Part shown: piece after piece, positions 2,571 through 17,816 of the stretch
Layout: the number at the start of each line of letters is the position of its first letter
How positions within the stretch are numbered: position 1 is the first letter of the stretch
Virus record (IMG/VR): IMGVR_UViG_2737471862_000006
DNA from: a virus
Lineage: Duplodnaviria > Heunggongvirae > Uroviricota > Caudoviricetes
DNA: 19,368 bases
Strand: one strand, 5' to 3'
Program-made: the position numbers and the translations under genes
Notes under the pieces: model-generated
Databases searched by the model: none
The model's input: the letters and a program-made list of their open reading frames with translations, nothing else
Told to the model about the DNA's origin: nothing

Positions 2571-2733
2571 TTTTCCTCACATATGTCATATAGTAAAGGA
2601 TTATATATACCGTTGTTTTGGACGCTCAAACAGCGAATCAGATCAAATAAAACGCACATTTGTTAACATTTACACAAAGTCTGCGTGGGATATTCTGAAA
2701 GAATATCCATAATGTGGAGAGAATCTATTGAAG

Positions 2734-2838
2734 TGCATGGTGCCGGGTGCCTCCCGGTGAACAAAATGTTCGTGATACCTGTCGGCGACAGAAAAGGTTA
2801 ATGGTATCACCCCACCGCACAGGGGGATTCACCATGCA
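2734..2838. other. Compact ~105-nt cluster of nested inverted repeats (candidate structured RNA or DNA site)
   Basis: Outer 9-bp perfect stem TGCATGGTG (2734-2742) / CACCATGCA (2830-2838) enclosing hairpins CCGGG-tgcct-CCCGG (2743-2757), GAACA-aaa-TGTTC (2759-2771), GTGATACC...GGTATCAC (2772-2779 / 2803-2810) and CCCC...GGGG (2810-2813 / 2822-2825). Confidence 0.35.
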
Positions 2839-3158
2839 GGAGTTTTCTTAGCAAACTCACTGCGCGCCCGGCAACTCCCAACCACATAAAATGCGGAGTT
2901 TGTGGCATTTATGCATATAACTCGCAGGAATTATCTTAAAAAACTGATGTCGATCCGGATTAAAAAGAAGCAGGTCATCATCAGATGACTGGAAAAAAGG
3001 AAAACAAAAAATACTCATCATACAGTTTTGATTGCAGGGATGAGCCTGCTATGCACAATATGCAGAATATAAGCAAGATAAAAATATGCAGGCATATTAT
3101 TTCGGATTTTGTTATTAACACAACCTTTTTAATAATCATTTGGCATACAATAAACCAG

Positions 3159-3190
3159 CCCAAAAAGAACCGCCTAAACAGGCGGTTGGT
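3159..3190 (-). terminator. Candidate Rho-independent terminator (minus strand)
   Basis: Minus-strand reading AACCGCC-tgtttag-GGCGGTT followed by CTTTTTGG. Confidence 0.45.
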
Positions 3191-3431
3191 CAATACAAAG
3201 GATGCTTCGTCTTTATTATAGTAATCTGAGGCGTCGGGTGTCTTGTATCAGACAACATATTGTCCCGCTAAACAGCGAATTACAAACCACCCTGCAATGA
3301 TCTCTCATCTCATTTTATATGAGTTGACGACATCAGGATAACGCATCATCAGCCCCTGCCAAGAAATATCAAAACTCCCGCCAGCAATGTGTTATCACAA
3401 TATTGTAAAAAAAACACAGCACCGAAACTAT

Positions 3432-3469
3432 AACTGGTCTCTGTTATAATTTGGAGCAGAAAGACCAGT
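3432..3469 (+). promoter_or_regulatory. Extended -10 promoter element (TGtTATAAT at 3442-3450) inside a 9-bp inverted repeat AACTGGTCT / AGACCAGTT
   Basis: Perfect TATAAT with TG at -14/-15 on the plus strand; flanking perfect inverted repeat (3432-3440 / 3461-3469) suggests a protein-binding site or RNA hairpin; lies downstream of the Q-like gene where a late promoter / qut region is expected. Confidence 0.35.
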
Positions 3470-3504
3470 TGCCCAACTAGCAGCATTCTCCCCTGCTTTC
3501 CTGA

Positions 3505-3537
3505 CGTAAAAAAACCGCATTAAGCGGTTTTTTTACG
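3505..3537. terminator. Bidirectional intrinsic terminator-like perfect palindrome (14-bp arms, 5-nt loop)
   Basis: CGTAAAAAAACCGC-attaa-GCGGTTTTTTTACG; GC stem flanked by an A-tract and T-tract, functional in either orientation; ~80 nt downstream of the Q-like stop. Confidence 0.6.
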
Positions 3538-3614
3538 ATGTCCATGTCTGCAATCCGCCTCGCGATACAGCTTTGCGAAGCATAGCAAAATTGAAGCAGT
3601 TTATACGTAAGAAA

Positions 3615-4157
3615 TCAAGCCATTTTCTCAGCAAATGATTCACGCATGGGAATATATAGGGCATACTCAGCAACAGCTAACCAATTAGCAATCCGTTTTT
3701 CGCATGTGCTAAAACACCACTCTGGGTGTGCATCATTTAGCAATTCAGCCATTTTGCGCTTAGTCATCCCCCGCCCTTCATAGCGTTGCCGGAGAATGCA
3801 AATCAATCCTGGATGCTCTGCCAGCACCTCACTTATGACTCGATCAATACATAACGCCTCTGCATCAGTACAATGCGCCAGCCAGCTCTTTTGCTTGCCG
3901 TTGATCATCTCTCGCAAAAACGCTTCCAGCTCAGCTTTCTCTATTCCCGCTTTTTTCATTCTGCGCAGGGCTTCATTAATGGCTGTTTTCGTCAGTTTTT
4001 TGGATGCCAACAACTGATTGAACATATTCCCTGACCTGCCACCGCCAATATACGACCAGCGCCCCCACATACGTAGTTTTCCCTGAATCCAGACACTTTC
4101 CAGCGTGGTGAGGCGAAGGTGTTCTCCGCTTTTTCCTGTATTCGTTGGGTAAATCAT
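3615..4157 (-). CDS. Putative late-gene antiterminator (Q-like), 180 aa
   Basis: Call rests on position (last gene before a terminator/promoter-like leader and the lysis cassette, after ybcO-like nin genes) and basic, Cys-containing composition; ATGA overlap with the upstream gene. No sequence match recalled to lambda Q itself. Confidence 0.5.
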   Translation of the reverse strand: MIYPTNTGKSGEHLRLTTLESVWIQGKLRMWGRWSYIGGGRSGNMFNQLLASKKLTKTAINEALRRMKKAGIEKAELEAFLREMINGKQKSWLAHCTDAEALCIDRVISEVLAEHPGLICILRQRYEGRGMTKRKMAELLNDAHPEWCFSTCEKRIANWLAVAEYALYIPMRESFAEKMA

Positions 4158-4444
4158 AAATGACCTTTCTTTCTCCAGATTTCTTGTGTGCGAAAAACCC
4201 CTTCAGCATGCATCAGGCGCAATTCTTCTTTGGTGTAATCGCTGGTTTTTACCCGCCCGTCGATTAGATCGTGGCATGAGCTACAGGCTATCGCCGCCTG
4301 CATATCATGTGGTTTTGTCGCTGTTCCGCACGTCCCCGCCAGCCTGTAATGCGCCAGCACAGAGGTTTCGGGATTGTGATTGCAGTAGCCAGGGATTCTG
4401 ATCTGGCACATCTGGCCTTTAGCCGCTTTACGTAAATTCACCAT
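4154..4444 (-). CDS. YbcO-like (DUF1364) putative nuclease, 96 aa
   Basis: 96-aa Cys/His-rich protein (C..C...H...C..C.H) matching in size and pattern the DLP12 nin-region protein YbcO; start overlaps the upstream stop. Confidence 0.65.
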   Translation of the reverse strand: MVNLRKAAKGQMCQIRIPGYCNHNPETSVLAHYRLAGTCGTATKPHDMQAAIACSSCHDLIDGRVKTSDYTKEELRLMHAEGVFRTQEIWRKKGHL

Positions 4445-5043
4445 TACGCAAACTCCAGTAGTTGTGCGGCCACATTTTCAACTTCCTCCTGAGAGGAGAA
4501 TTTACGGAACAGAATCCAGTTCCACAGCACATTCAGTACAGATTTATAAACCTGCTGAAACTCGACTTCGTCCATATTCGCAAAAGCGATGGATTTTGCC
4601 CGACGCCCACGGCTACCGTCCGGATAAATATGCTCGGTGTAAAATCCGGCCTGAATGGTTACCCACTCGCGGAAAGCCTCAAACGACTTTAGCAACGCCG
4701 TATCCCGGGTTCTACGAGTCGCAACGGTGTTAAGGTATTGCTCTGCGGCATCACTCAGGGCTGGCGTGTGTTCCCGACCAACTGATTCGCACAGGTAATC
4801 AACGAAACCAGACAGCAGTTCTCGTTCGCGAGGCGTGATCGCCCCACCGACCGGAGTCCAGTAATCGAATCCCAGTTGCAGGAGTTTGAAAAAACGCTTG
4901 TGGAATGCGTAGTTACGCACACGCTTAAAGTCTGCGTGTATCCACTCACCTATTTTGATTTGATGCAGAAAATCGCAACTCTCCGGCGTCGCCGGGAGAA
5001 GTAAACCAGAAGAGGTTTGTTTGACCAGTTGTATATGCGCCAT
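4444..5043 (-). CDS. DUF1367-like lambdoid nin-region protein, 199 aa
   Basis: Resembles the conserved prophage protein family that commonly precedes DUF1364/YbcO in lambdoid nin regions; translationally coupled to the ybcO-like gene. Confidence 0.55.
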   Translation of the reverse strand: MAHIQLVKQTSSGLLLPATPESCDFLHQIKIGEWIHADFKRVRNYAFHKRFFKLLQLGFDYWTPVGGAITPRERELLSGFVDYLCESVGREHTPALSDAAEQYLNTVATRRTRDTALLKSFEAFREWVTIQAGFYTEHIYPDGSRGRRAKSIAFANMDEVEFQQVYKSVLNVLWNWILFRKFSSQEEVENVAAQLLEFA

Positions 5044-11202: not shown

Positions 11203-11622
11203 ATGGTTCATGAAGATAAAGCGCGTAAAGAGTTCGCCAGTAGGCTTGCGCTAGCCTGTGAAAACGCTGGTTATGAACAACATGGAAGGCAGGCAGAAAT
11301 TGCCCGTCGAATGAAATTAACACCAAAAGCGGTTAGCAAATGGTTTAATGGCGAAACAATTCCTCGCCGAGAGAAATTAAGGGAATTAGCAACACTCATT
11401 GGAACAACACCAACCTATCTTTTGGGAGAGGATACAGAAGAAAGTGGACAGGTACGTTTCTATCAGGAGTTAAATCCAAGACAAAAAATCATCATTGACC
11501 TTCTGGACGAGCTCCCTGACAGTGAGACAGATGAACTTTTAAAAACTCTTGAGGAGAAAAAACAGAAGTACAATGCAATTTACGAAGAGCTAGCACGAAA
11601 GAAAAAACAAAAAGCCTCTTAA
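11203..11622 (+). CDS. racR: RacR-like XRE-family prophage repressor, 139 aa
   Basis: HTH QAEIARRMKLTPKAVSKWFNGETIP; divergent from the Cro-like gene; flanked by ydaG/ydaF/sieB/kilR as in Rac. Confidence 0.7.
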   Translation: MVHEDKARKEFASRLALACENAGYEQHGRQAEIARRMKLTPKAVSKWFNGETIPRREKLRELATLIGTTPTYLLGEDTEESGQVRFYQELNPRQKIIIDLLDELPDSETDELLKTLEEKKQKYNAIYEELARKKKQKAS

Positions 11623-13982: not shown

Positions 13983-16583
13983 ATGAGCACAAAACCACTC
14001 TTCCTGTTACGGAAAGCGAAAAAATCATCCGGTGAACCTGACGTCGTCCTGTGGGCAAGCAACGATTTTGAATCGACCTGTGCCACTCTGGACTACCTGA
14101 TCGTTAAGTCAGGTAAAAAACTGAGCAGCTATTTTAAAGCTGTTGCCACGAATTTTCCTGTCGTTAATGACCTGCCCGCTGAAGGTGAGATCGATTTTAC
14201 CTGGAGTGAACGCTATCAACTCAGCAAAGACTCCATGACATGGGAACTAAAACCGGGAGCAGCACCAAACAACGCTCACTATCAAGGCAATACCAACGTC
14301 AACGGCGAAGACATGACTGAGATTGAGGAGAATATGCTACTCCCAATTTCTGGCCAGGAACTGCCCATTCGTTGGCTTGCTCAACACGGCAGCGAAAAAC
14401 CGGTAACGCACGTTTCACGCGACGGACTCCAGGCATTACACATTGCTCGGGCTGAAGAACTACCGGCTGTTACTGCCCTGGCTGTTTCCCACAAAACCAG
14501 CCTGCTCGACCCGCTGGAAATTCGCGAACTCCACAAACTGGTTCGTGACACTGACAAAGTTTTCCCTAATCCTGGTAATTCAAACCTGGGACTGATAACT
14601 GCTTTTTTCGAAGCATACCTGAACGCTGACTACACCGATCGAGGACTGCTGACAAAAGAGTGGATGAAGGGTAATCGTGTTTCACACATCACTCGCACGG
14701 CTTCCGGTGCTAATGCTGGCGGCGGAAACCTCACCGATCGCGGCGAAGGTTTCGTACACGATCTGACGTCACTGGCGCGGGACGTAGCCACTGGCGTACT
14801 GGCCCGTTCAATGGATCTGGACATCTATAACCTTCATCCGGCACACGCTAAACGCATTGAGGAAATTATCGCTGAAAATAAACCGCCCTTTTCTGTTTTC
14901 CGCGACAAATTCATCACCATGCCTGGCGGGCTGGATTATTCCCGCGCCATCGTGGTTGCGTCCGTAAAAGAAGCACCAATTGGGATCGAGGTCATCCCCG
15001 CGCACGTCACTGAATATCTGAACAAAGTACTGACTGAAACCGATCATGCCAACCCTGATCCGGAAATCGTGGATATTGCCTGCGGTCGCTCCTCTGCCCC
15101 GATGCCGCAGCGAGTAACAGAAGAAGGAAAACAGGATGATGAAGAAAAACCGCAACCATCTGGAACAACGGCAGTTGAACAGGGAGAGGCTGAAACAATG
15201 GAACCGGACGCAACTGAACATCATCAGGACACGCAGCCGCTGGATGCTCAGTCACAGGTAAATTCTGTTGATGCGAAATATCAGGAACTGCGGGCAGAAC
15301 TCCATGAAGCCCGGAAAAACATTCCATCAAAAAATCCTGTCGATGCCGATAAATTGCTTGCTGCATCACGTGGTGAATTTGTTGACGGAATTAGCGACCC
15401 GAACGATCCGAAATGGGTAAAGGGGATCCAGACTCGCGATTGTGTGTACCAGAACCAGCCAGAAACGGAAAAAACCAGCCCGGATATGAATCAACCTGAG
15501 CCAGTAGTGCAACAGGAACCGGAAATAGCCTGCAATGCCTGCGGCCAGACTGGCGGGGATAACTGCCCTGACTGTGGTGCGGTGATGGGCGACGCAACAT
15601 ACCAGGAAACATTCGATGAAGAGAGTCAGGTTGAAGCTAAGGAAAATGATCCGGAGGAAATGGAAGGCGCTGAACATCCGCACAATGAGAATGCTGGCAG
15701 CGATCCGCATCGCGATTGCAGTGATGAAACTGGCGAAGTCGCAGATCCCGTAATCGTAGAAGACATAGAGCCAGGTATTTATTACGGAATTTCGAATGAG
15801 AATTACCACGCGGGTCCCGGTGTCAGTAAGTCTCAGCTCGATGACATTGCTGATACTCCGGCACTGTATTTGTGGCGTAAAAATGCCCCCGTGGACACCA
15901 CAAAGACAAAAACGCTCGATCTAGGAACCGCTTTCCACTGCCGGGTACTTGAGCCGGAAGAATTCAGTAACCGCTTTATCGTAGCACCTGAATTTAACCG
16001 CCGGACAAACTCCGGAAAAGAAGAAGAGAAAGCGTTTCTGAGGGAATGCGCAAGCACAGGAAAAACGGTTATCACTGCCGAAGAAGGCCGGAAAATTGAA
16101 CTCATGTATCAGAGCGTTATGGCTTTGCCGCTGGGGCAATGGCTTGTTGAAAGCGCCGGACACGCTGAATCATCAATTTACTGGGAAGATCCTGAAACAG
16201 CAATTTTGTGTCGGTGCCGTCCGGACAAAATTATCCCTGAATTTCACTGGATCATGGACGTGAAAACTACGGCGGATATTCAACGATTCAAAACCGCTTA
16301 TTACGACTACCGCTATCACGTTCAGGATGCATTCTACAGTGACGGTTATGAAGCACAGTTTGGAGTGCAGCCAACTTTCGTTTTTCTGGTTGCCAGCACA
16401 ACTATTGAATGCGGACGTTATCCGGTTGAAATTTTCATGATGGGCGAAGAAGCAAAACTGGCAGGTCAGCTGGAATATCACCGCAATCTGCGAACCCTGG
16501 CTGACTGCCTCAATACCGATGAATGGCCAGCTATTAAGACGTTATCACTGCCCCGCTGGGCTAAGGAATATGCAAATGACTAA
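13983..16583 (+). CDS. recE: Exodeoxyribonuclease VIII (RecE), 866 aa
   Basis: Full-length 866-aa ORF with the acidic central region and C-terminal nuclease domain characteristic of Rac RecE; followed by an overlapping recT. Confidence 0.95.
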
Positions 16584-17385
16584 GCAACCACCAATCGCAA
16601 AAGCCGATCTGCAAAAAACTCAGGGAAACCGTGCACCAGCAGCAATTAAAAATAACGACGTGATTAGTTTTATTAACCAGCCATCAATGAAAGAGCAACT
16701 GGCAGCAGCTCTTCCACGCCATATGACGGCTGAACGTATGATCCGTATCGCCACCACAGAAATTCGTAAAGTTCCGGCGTTAGGAAACTGTGACACTATG
16801 AGTTTTGTCAGTGCAATCGTACAGTGTTCACAGCTCGGACTTGAGCCCGGTAGCGCCCTCGGTCATGCATATTTACTGCCTTTTGGTAATAAAAACGAAA
16901 AGAGCGGTAAAAAAAACGTTCAGCTAATCATTGGCTATCGCGGCATGATTGATCTGGCTCGCCGTTCAGGTCAAATCGCCAGCCTGTCAGCCCGTGTTGT
17001 CCGTGAAGGTGACGAGTTTAATTTCGAATTTGGCCTTGATGAAAAGTTAATACACCGCCCAGGAGAAAACGAAGATGCCCCTGTTACCCACGTCTATGCT
17101 GTCGCAAGACTGAAAGACGGAGGTACTCAGTTTGAAGTTATGACGCGCAAACAGATTGAGCTGGTGCGCAGCCAGAGTAAAGCTGGTAATAACGGGCCGT
17201 GGGTAACTCACTGGGAAGAAATGGCAAAGAAAACGGCTATTCGTCGCCTGTTCAAATATCTGCCCGTATCAATTGAGATCCAGCGTGCAGTATCAATGGA
17301 TGAAAAGGAACCACTGACAATCGATCCTGCAGATTCCTCTGTATTAACCGGGGAATACAGTGTAATCGATAATTCAGAGGAATAA
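16576..17385 (+). CDS. recT: RecT single-strand annealing protein, 269 aa
   Basis: ATG at 16576 overlaps the recE stop (ATGACTAA); [35 protein letters not shown]... matches RecT. Confidence 0.95.
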
Positions 17386-17440: not shown

Positions 17441-17635
17441 ATGAGATATGACAATGTTAAACCATGTCCATTTTGTGGTTGTCCATCAGTAACGGTGAAA
17501 GCCATTTCAGGATATTACCGAGCGAAGTGTAACGGATGCGAATCCCGAACCGGTTATGGTGGAAGTGAAAAAGAAGCACTCGAACGATGAAATAAACGAA
17601 CCACTGGAAATAATAATGGAGGTGTTCATGTATAA
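17441..17635 (+). pseudogene. ralR: ralR toxin (restriction-alleviation / DNase) interrupted by an in-frame TGA at codon 50
   Basis: MRYDNVKPCPFCGCPSVTVKAISGYYRAKCNGCESRTGYGGSEKEALER then TGA (17588-17590), then in-frame NKRTTGNNNGGVHV and TAA (17633-17635); total 64 codons as in K-12 RalR, where this codon is TGG (Trp) by my recollection. Confidence 0.65.
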
Positions 17636-17816
17636 AATTACCGCCACTATTGAAAAGGAAGGTGGCACTCCTACTAACTGGACAAGATATTCAAAATCTA
17701 AACTAACGAAATCAGAATGCGAAAAAATGCTCTCAGGTAAAAAAGAAGCAGGCGTTTCCAGAGAGCAGAAAGTAAAACTGATAAATTTTAATTGCGAGAA
17801 ACTTCAGTCCTCGTGA
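17628..17816 (+). CDS. rcbA: RcbA/YdaC-like protein, 62 aa
   Basis: MYKITATIEKEGGTPTNWTRYSKSKLTKSECEKMLSGKK...; ATG overlaps the end of the ralR frame; SD GGAGGTG. Confidence 0.65.
   Translation: MYKITATIEKEGGTPTNWTRYSKSKLTKSECEKMLSGKKEAGVSREQKVKLINFNCEKLQSS

Follow-up and report, generated by a model that had tools for sequence, protein, structure and literature searches.

In this work we analyse the late-gene region of a 19,368-nt stretch of viral DNA (Caudoviricetes; IMG/VR record IMGVR_UViG_2737471862_000006), referred to as the window, which represents an E. coli prophage of the lambdoid, Rac-like kind. Its plus strand carries a gene for a repressor-like HTH protein (11203-11622) along with recE and recT (13983-17385); between 11195 and 171, from the cro-side operon through to Rz, all genes lie on the minus strand. 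The RalA antitoxin sRNA of the RalR/RalA type I toxin-antitoxin pair is encoded at 17634-17812 on the minus strand (225 bits), and its presence together with recE, recT and sieB identifies the prophage as Rac-like, with an intact late region. In descending order, the minus strand carries a DUF1367 gene (4444-5043), a YbcO gene (4154-4444), a Q-like antiterminator gene (3615-4157), two open reading frames (ORFs) with TolA C-terminal domains (2142-2570 and 1596-1991), and genes for an S21-type holin, a lysozyme and Rz (171-1401). The Q-like protein, of 180 aa, belongs to the Pfam family DUF1133 (E = 2.5e-107; Phage_antitermQ, E = 8.6e-6), the same family as AntQ of Gifsy-1, and phage proteins 94-97% identical to it are annotated as 'antitermination protein Q'. 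The two TolA-like ORFs sit between Q and the holin gene, the usual position of cargo genes in lambdoid phages, and may be involved in the exclusion of Tol-dependent colicins or phages; IS elements have inserted in this region in several E. coli genomes (L001).

The interval under study, 3432-3537, lies 78-185 nt past the Q stop codon and inside the leader of the late operon; an RNA transcribed here on the plus strand would be antisense to it. The initial annotation had described an extended -10 element, TGtTATAAT (TGTTATAAT, 3442-3450, plus strand), within the 21-nt loop of a 9-bp inverted repeat, and the element lies exactly there: the repeat arms, AACTGGTCT and AGACCAGTT at 3432-3440 and 3462-3470, are 100% complementary. 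The palindromic terminator described further downstream is equally real, beginning after a gap of 55 nt and consisting of CGTAAAAAAACCGC-attaa-GCGGTTTTTTTACG, with 14-bp arms (3505-3518 and 3524-3537) that are complementary at 14/14 positions and include the A and T tracts. Sequence 3390-3556, which includes the interval, is carried by 463 of 5426 complete E. coli genomes, with E. coli CP53, APEC 789 and NCTC9082 among the strains that have the prophage. The copies in 434 of the genomes show an identity of 99% or more, a near-identity that reflects a shared prophage rather than selection. PGAP annotates no feature under the interval in any of the genomes listed among the 463 carriers, a DNA search of the phage collection with 3200-3556 returned zero matches, and the exact sequences of the interval are absent from the papers of the literature library searched.

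Key to interpreting the interval is the sequence that directly follows the Q gene. Here we predict a late promoter, PR' (3590-3618, minus strand), whose -35 hexamer TTGATT (3618-3613) overlaps the Q stop codon TGA (3617-3615) and is separated by a 17-nt spacer from a weak -10 hexamer, TTCAAT (3595-3590), after which comes TAYGCTTCGCAAAGCTGTATCGCGAGGCG. This block is invariant across all E. coli variants, whatever comes after it. The -10 hexamer does not have the highly conserved A at position 2, and the TTGATT-17-TTCAAT combination was not listed by a simple promoter scan; the homologous hexamers in other genera are near-consensus (TTGACA-16-TAGTAT in Edwardsiella, TTGACT-16-TAATAT in Xenorhabdus and TTGACT-16-TATAGT in Providencia), and in these loci a TAnGCT motif starts approximately 7 nt past the -10. 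The corresponding motif of the window, TATGCT (3579-3584, minus strand), resembles a -10 hexamer, is preceded by TG in the window variant, and would occupy positions of about +1 to +6 of the transcript. TAnGCT occurs at the same place in approximately 45 loci from many genera.

From these sequence features we infer that PR' is positioned directly after the Q stop codon. Since the -10 TTCAAT is weak and TGcTATGCT offers an alternative, the predicted start site is uncertain by approximately 12 nt, and transcription could instead start via TGcTATGCT, approximately 11 nt further on. In lambda, PR' abuts the Q gene, a -10-like pause element lies at the start of the transcript, and a short leader leads to the terminator tR'. 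By analogy with the PR' promoters of lambda, 82 and 21, TATGCT is a candidate sigma70-dependent pause element of the qut type. The predicted late promoter and pause block lie at approximately 3579-3618, outside the reported interval. A second proposal of the initial annotation was that the region is a minus-strand late promoter or Q-utilisation site and that the palindrome is tR' or the terminator of the early transcript. It was half right: the palindrome is very probably of the tR' type, but the predicted promoter and pause block are not within 3432-3470.

The palindrome itself (3505-3537), with a CCGC/GCGG core between A7 and T7, could terminate transcription in both directions and is separated from the Q stop codon by approximately 80-110 nt. 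The 81-nt folds for the plus and minus strands had z-scores of -5.6 and -3.6, respectively, marking it as clearly non-random; a simple terminator scan had missed it because the stem runs through the A and T tracts. Comparison with relatives places it in a wider context. In 80 viral contigs encoding the window Q, a single post-Q block of approximately 60 bp is followed by five unrelated types of spacer plus terminator, with stems of CCGC, CCCGC (two types), CCACC and CCCCGC. The window Q is also encoded by the vB_EcoS-666R9 group of phages (94-97% protein identity). There, DNA homology to the window extends roughly 60 bp beyond the Q gene, to approximately 3556, and 20-25 nt after it ends comes a different intrinsic terminator on the Q strand. 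A cross-genus set of 59 Q-homologue loci, with one genome per species, extends this pattern: in approximately 45 of the 59, an intrinsic terminator oriented like Q is present at 40-95 nt from the Q stop codon, and the distance between TAnGCT and the last U of the terminator tract is there mostly 68-85 nt. The loci come from Escherichia, Salmonella, Citrobacter, Klebsiella, Enterobacter and Serratia, and further from Yersinia, Xenorhabdus, Providencia, Proteus and Edwardsiella.

That the stem sequences differ while the position of the terminator after Q stays constant points to the palindrome as tR', and it is in all likelihood the tR'-type terminator of a PR' leader of approximately 75 nt behind a Q gene of the DUF1133/AntQ type. 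A-rich sequence ahead of the stem is common in this group of terminators: in many of these loci the preceding 8 nt contain 5 or more A, and a convergent promoter is absent; the symmetry of the window palindrome is thus a trait of the family and no sign of a convergent gene. More generally, the DUF1133/AntQ family of Q proteins can be seen to be accompanied by a recognisable, genus-spanning unit of promoter, TAnGCT, leader of approximately 70 nt and terminator. In the mechanism that we propose by analogy with lambda, RNA polymerase starting at PR' would, without Q, end at tR' and release the leader RNA of approximately 75 nt. Q would load onto polymerase paused at TATGCT (3579-3584), and the Q-loaded polymerase would pass tR' to transcribe the leader, STnc100, the two TolA-like ORFs and the holin-lysozyme-Rz genes.

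The predicted PR'-tR' leader RNA (approximately 3506-3583, minus strand) would be about 75-79 nt long, as judged from its fold and from the lengths in relatives, and folds into a 5' hairpin (approximately 3554-3579), an A-rich linker and the terminator hairpin. RNAalifold applied to 25 leaders returned no consensus structure, a result explained by the automatic alignment, which misregisters the terminators. The leader is reminiscent in layout of IsrK (RF01394) of Gifsy-1, a 77-nt RNA shown experimentally to be made from a promoter just downstream of antQ (PMC4825925) and with some transcription continuing past its terminator into orf45-anrP (Hershko-Shalev et al. 2016, PMC4825925). The likeness extends to length, to the arrangement of 5' hairpin, linker and terminator hairpin, and to the position behind a DUF1133/AntQ gene. 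The isrK model gives a weak full-length alignment to the window (3508-3581, minus strand; E = 0.026), with a score of 21.6 bits that is below the gathering score of 50 bits. Two further loci do reach the gathering score, at the same post-Q position: L097 from E. coli (75.6 bits) and L101 from Salmonella (67.1 bits), whose Q proteins are 89% and 84% identical to the window Q, respectively. Taken with the antQ-proximal promoter, this position identifies IsrK as the PR'-tR' leader in one branch of the Q family, which recasts IsrK as an RNA of the lambda 6S and StxS type.

The window nevertheless differs from the IsrK loci in several respects. Its promoter and leader block cannot be aligned with that of L097 or L101, nor can the sequence after its terminator. 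Rfam and Pfam searches of the window found no anrP antirepressor, C4 or c4-a1b1, so that the trans-activation mechanism of IsrK is not to be assumed here. The window leader is therefore a positional analogue of Gifsy-1 IsrK and not a member of RF01394; it is likewise a positional counterpart of lambda 6S RNA and of StxS. The window is predicted to share with lambda (PR'-qut-tR'/6S) and the Stx phages a post-Q promoter, a -10-like element early in the transcript, a short terminated leader and Q-dependent read-through into the lysis genes. It differs from lambda in that its Q is a DUF1133 protein with marginal similarity to Pfam Phage_antitermQ, and in that the predicted leader measures approximately 75 nt, compared to 194 nt in lambda. 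As such, the E. coli leader of the window is an unannotated sequence type of PR'-tR' leader, which is an ordinary finding. We also observed that in L097 (2075-2276) and L101 (2088-2268) the c4-a1b1 element (RF03163, scored in L097) lies over the 5' half of isrK, with a C4 antisense RNA (RF01695, 61-78 bits) approximately 25 nt downstream, inside orf45. The isrK-orf45-anrP arrangement of Gifsy-1 thus looks like an immunity module of the P1/P7 c4-icd-ant type behind the PR' of the Q gene, and the orf45' RNA (STnc1160) may be a homologue of C4.

Beyond the terminator, the second part of the interval belongs to a leader module that is found behind different Q genes. On the minus strand from approximately 3470 to 3000, the sequence shares about 69% identity with L003 and L004 across approximately 450-490 bp, and in these and the other module relatives (L009, L010 and L011) the Q genes are different and the segment follows a tRNA-Gly gene. 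In the window this Q-independent late-leader module (3160-3470, minus strand) comprises two hairpins, a U8 run, a tiny ORF, a degenerate STnc100-like element and a terminator at 3168-3187. The 9-bp inverted repeat, here named I4 (3432-3470), forms its 5' edge, and the repeat is real in that its pairing is kept in relatives: the 5' arms differ between sequence classes yet always pair, with U-G wobbles (GGUCUC/GAGGCC in L004; UGGUUUC/GAGACCA in L010 and L011) that are valid on minus-strand RNA only. Overlapping I4 is a second hairpin, I3 (3425-3452, minus strand; AAAUUAUAAC-N8-GUUAUAGUUU, arms at 3425-3434 and 3443-3452), which the initial annotation did not note, which is better conserved than I4 and with which I4 is mutually exclusive. 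Across six variants of the module, all 60 of the 60 I3 cells pair on the minus-strand RNA, one pair appearing as UA, UG or CG and another as UA or UG; read on the plus strand, 10 of the 60 become C-A or A-C mismatches. Since these wobbles turn into C-A on the plus strand, a structure of the minus-strand RNA is favoured over a plus-strand RNA or a protein-binding dyad. The strand-specific covariation, drawn from three independent sequence classes and not significant in a shuffle control (254/500), is suggestive.

Together these observations lead us to regard 3432-3537 as very probably the junction of two late-operon leader parts, both of which act on the minus strand. The second of these, at 3425-3470, would be the start of a separate leader module that presents two mutually exclusive hairpins in the minus-strand RNA. 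A weak hairpin plus U8 run at approximately 3406-3440 was considered as a terminator and rejected, its pairs not being kept in relatives.

A rival reading of the extended -10 element and the palindrome is a genuine plus-strand antisense sRNA of approximately 78 nt, starting at approximately 3456-3458 and ending at the bidirectional palindrome (hypothetical transcript 3457-3535), which would pair perfectly with late transcripts reading through the region or act in trans. The initial annotation had favoured such an RNA, of approximately 80 nt, and several features do speak for it. The TGnTATAAT match is perfect and an A8 tract lies at approximately -52 to -45, the position of an UP element; the terminator is symmetric, giving a U7 tail on the plus strand too; the predicted RNA folds well (z = -5.6), with the usual 3' end of hairpin plus U-tail; and a precedent exists in PasA of E2348/69, which is transcribed against a lambdoid late operon. 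Against these stands the frequency of the motif, with one TGnTATAAT match in the window where 1.05 are expected and 136 of 200 shuffled sequences containing at least one. The element also has no usable -35 (ccgaaa) and was absent from the list of a two-hexamer scan. Its TATAAT is further explained by the minus-strand structure: the module core AAYTATAACRGAGRCCAGTTAT is conserved, the plus-strand TATAAT is its complement and that of the 5' arm of I3, and TGtTATAAT is, from the sequence, most likely the complement of a conserved AU-rich RNA stem plus the first base of the loop. In the module relatives the TG has become CG in L003 and L009 (CGTTATAAT), the hexamer reads TATAGT in L010 and L011 (TGTTATAGT), and no plus-strand terminator follows the motif, so that a transcript would run antisense into the tRNA genes. 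Among 80 distinct post-Q regions, a convergent extended -10 at approximately 170 nt past the Q stop codon was found only in copies of the window sequence and in L116; the latter, which carries TGTTATAGT at the same distance from Q, is unrelated in sequence and was set aside as a coincidence. The pairing of promoter and terminator is thus confined to copies of the window sequence and is the product of one module junction. An Rfam search of 2900-3700, both at the gathering score and at E <= 10, gave noise-level matches only, driven by terminators; the plus-strand terminator is already accounted for by tR'; and, as above, no annotation accompanies the interval in the listed carriers. Comparison with the Pas sRNAs of EPEC prophages (PasA/PasC; Pearl Mizrahi 2021, PMC8550237; Zhu et al. 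2026, bioRxiv 10.64898/2026.05.13.724894) is also instructive. PasA and PasC, like the candidate, are encoded between Q and the holin gene, and PasA shares its orientation against the late operon. PasA differs in adjoining the holin gene rather than Q and in being experimentally supported; in E2348/69, PasC likewise adjoins the holin gene, PasB lies among tail genes, and PasD is just upstream of the holin gene. Alignment of the PasA, PasB, PasC and PasD loci (L005-L008) to 2601-3700 of the window by blastn detected no similarity, in agreement with a visual comparison of PasA and PasC. The -10 element, at chance frequency and in an arrangement that is not conserved, is probably incidental, and we consider a plus-strand sRNA gene unlikely. 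A perfect TGnTATAAT with an upstream A-tract may well fire to some extent in vivo, and it is conceivable, if doubtful, that the fusion of the module to a symmetric tR' accidentally created a convergent unit that now yields a lineage-specific antisense RNA of approximately 78 nt. If so, this RNA would pair with read-through late transcripts and damp leaky expression of late and lysis genes in the lysogen, or act in trans, and would be an sRNA that arose de novo where two mosaic modules meet.

Two further readings concern the same elements. An early transcript containing Q might merely end at the palindrome, with the late promoter located elsewhere, for example at AAGACA-18-TATAAT (3244-3215, minus strand). 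A promoter scan does list this site (10/12) together with the terminator at 3187-3168, and the -10 of the proposed PR' is weak. However, the 3244-3160 segment belongs to the Q-independent module, which occurs behind unrelated Q genes and downstream of tRNAs and so cannot carry a Q-specific site. The post-Q block accompanies this Q family from genus to genus, invariably with a terminator behind it; the IsrK promoter, moreover, has been located experimentally at the post-Q position (PMC4825925). We therefore hold a late promoter elsewhere to be quite improbable. Least credible of all is that the dyad ATAAC-N8-GTTAT (3425-3452) or the 9-bp repeat serves as a DNA operator for a phage regulator. 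The dyad is AT-rich, has an 8-bp spacer and is conserved in three module classes, which speaks for an operator, but every departure from symmetry, among the few independent changes available, is of the T/G type, giving U-G on minus-strand RNA and C-A on the other strand, and no candidate binding protein was identified. The main value of the analysis with respect to the preferred reading, a PR'-tR' leader joined to a Q-independent module, is one of correction: a perfect promoter motif combined with a palindromic terminator mimics an sRNA gene, and relatives reveal the standard Q/PR'/tR' unit.

The late leader contains several further elements. A bona fide STnc100 sRNA (2681-2867, minus strand; Rfam, 86.6 bits) lies between the Q region and the TolA-like ORFs and has a 3' hairpin without a U-tract. 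Upstream of it, a degenerate STnc100-like unit (approximately 3165-3340, minus strand) ends at the 3168-3187 terminator; the module bearing I3 and I4 thus ends in a degenerate relative of the STnc100/PasD family (RF02076), and the reported interval lies upstream of this element, not inside it. The counterpart in L003 (2236-2431) is better preserved, giving a full-length sub-threshold match to STnc100 (27.6 bits, E = 5e-4) in which a long-range helix is altered on both sides (GAGGUG/CACCUC versus AUGGUG/CACCAU); matches at the STnc100 gathering score are absent from the related modules. Hairpins I3 and I4, conserved as alternatives ahead of STnc100-like elements, may be of interest to those who study STnc100 and PasD. 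A conserved promoter-like site, TTGATA-16-GATGAT/GATTAT (3372-3345), would start the STnc100-like unit at approximately 3338. Within the same segment (3168-3244, minus strand), AAGACA-18-TATAAT is followed approximately 30 nt on by a good terminator, AACCGCCTGTTTAGGCGGTT-CTTTTT, and could give an RNA of approximately 45-50 nt; its TATAAT and terminator are conserved in class B relatives.

Small ORFs were also noted in this region. One of 45 aa, hydrophobic (MLLVGQLVFLLQII...; 3349-3486, minus strand), starts 19 nt past tR' and has a stop codon that overlaps the next ATG (TGATG). Its resemblance to the orf45 of Gifsy-1 is superficial, a coincidence of length, and as a counterpart of the orf45 of IsrK loci it was rejected: the homology to relatives includes a 1-nt indel, and among copies of the same sequence a T run is either T7 or T8, which would shift the frame. 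Similarly, a plus-strand ORF at 2985-3221, annotated as 'hypothetical protein' in relatives, has translations that are unrelated between them and is thus not a gene. A tiny ORF (3305-3349, minus strand; MMRYPDVVNSYKMR) has a Shine-Dalgarno-like sequence, GGCAGGGG. The corresponding peptides in relatives are MHYPDVVNITK and MMRHPYVV, and codons differ at their third positions (CCT/CCC and GTC/GTT/GTA). The tiny ORF could encode a leader peptide or simply have arisen by chance within the promoter region of the STnc100-like unit.
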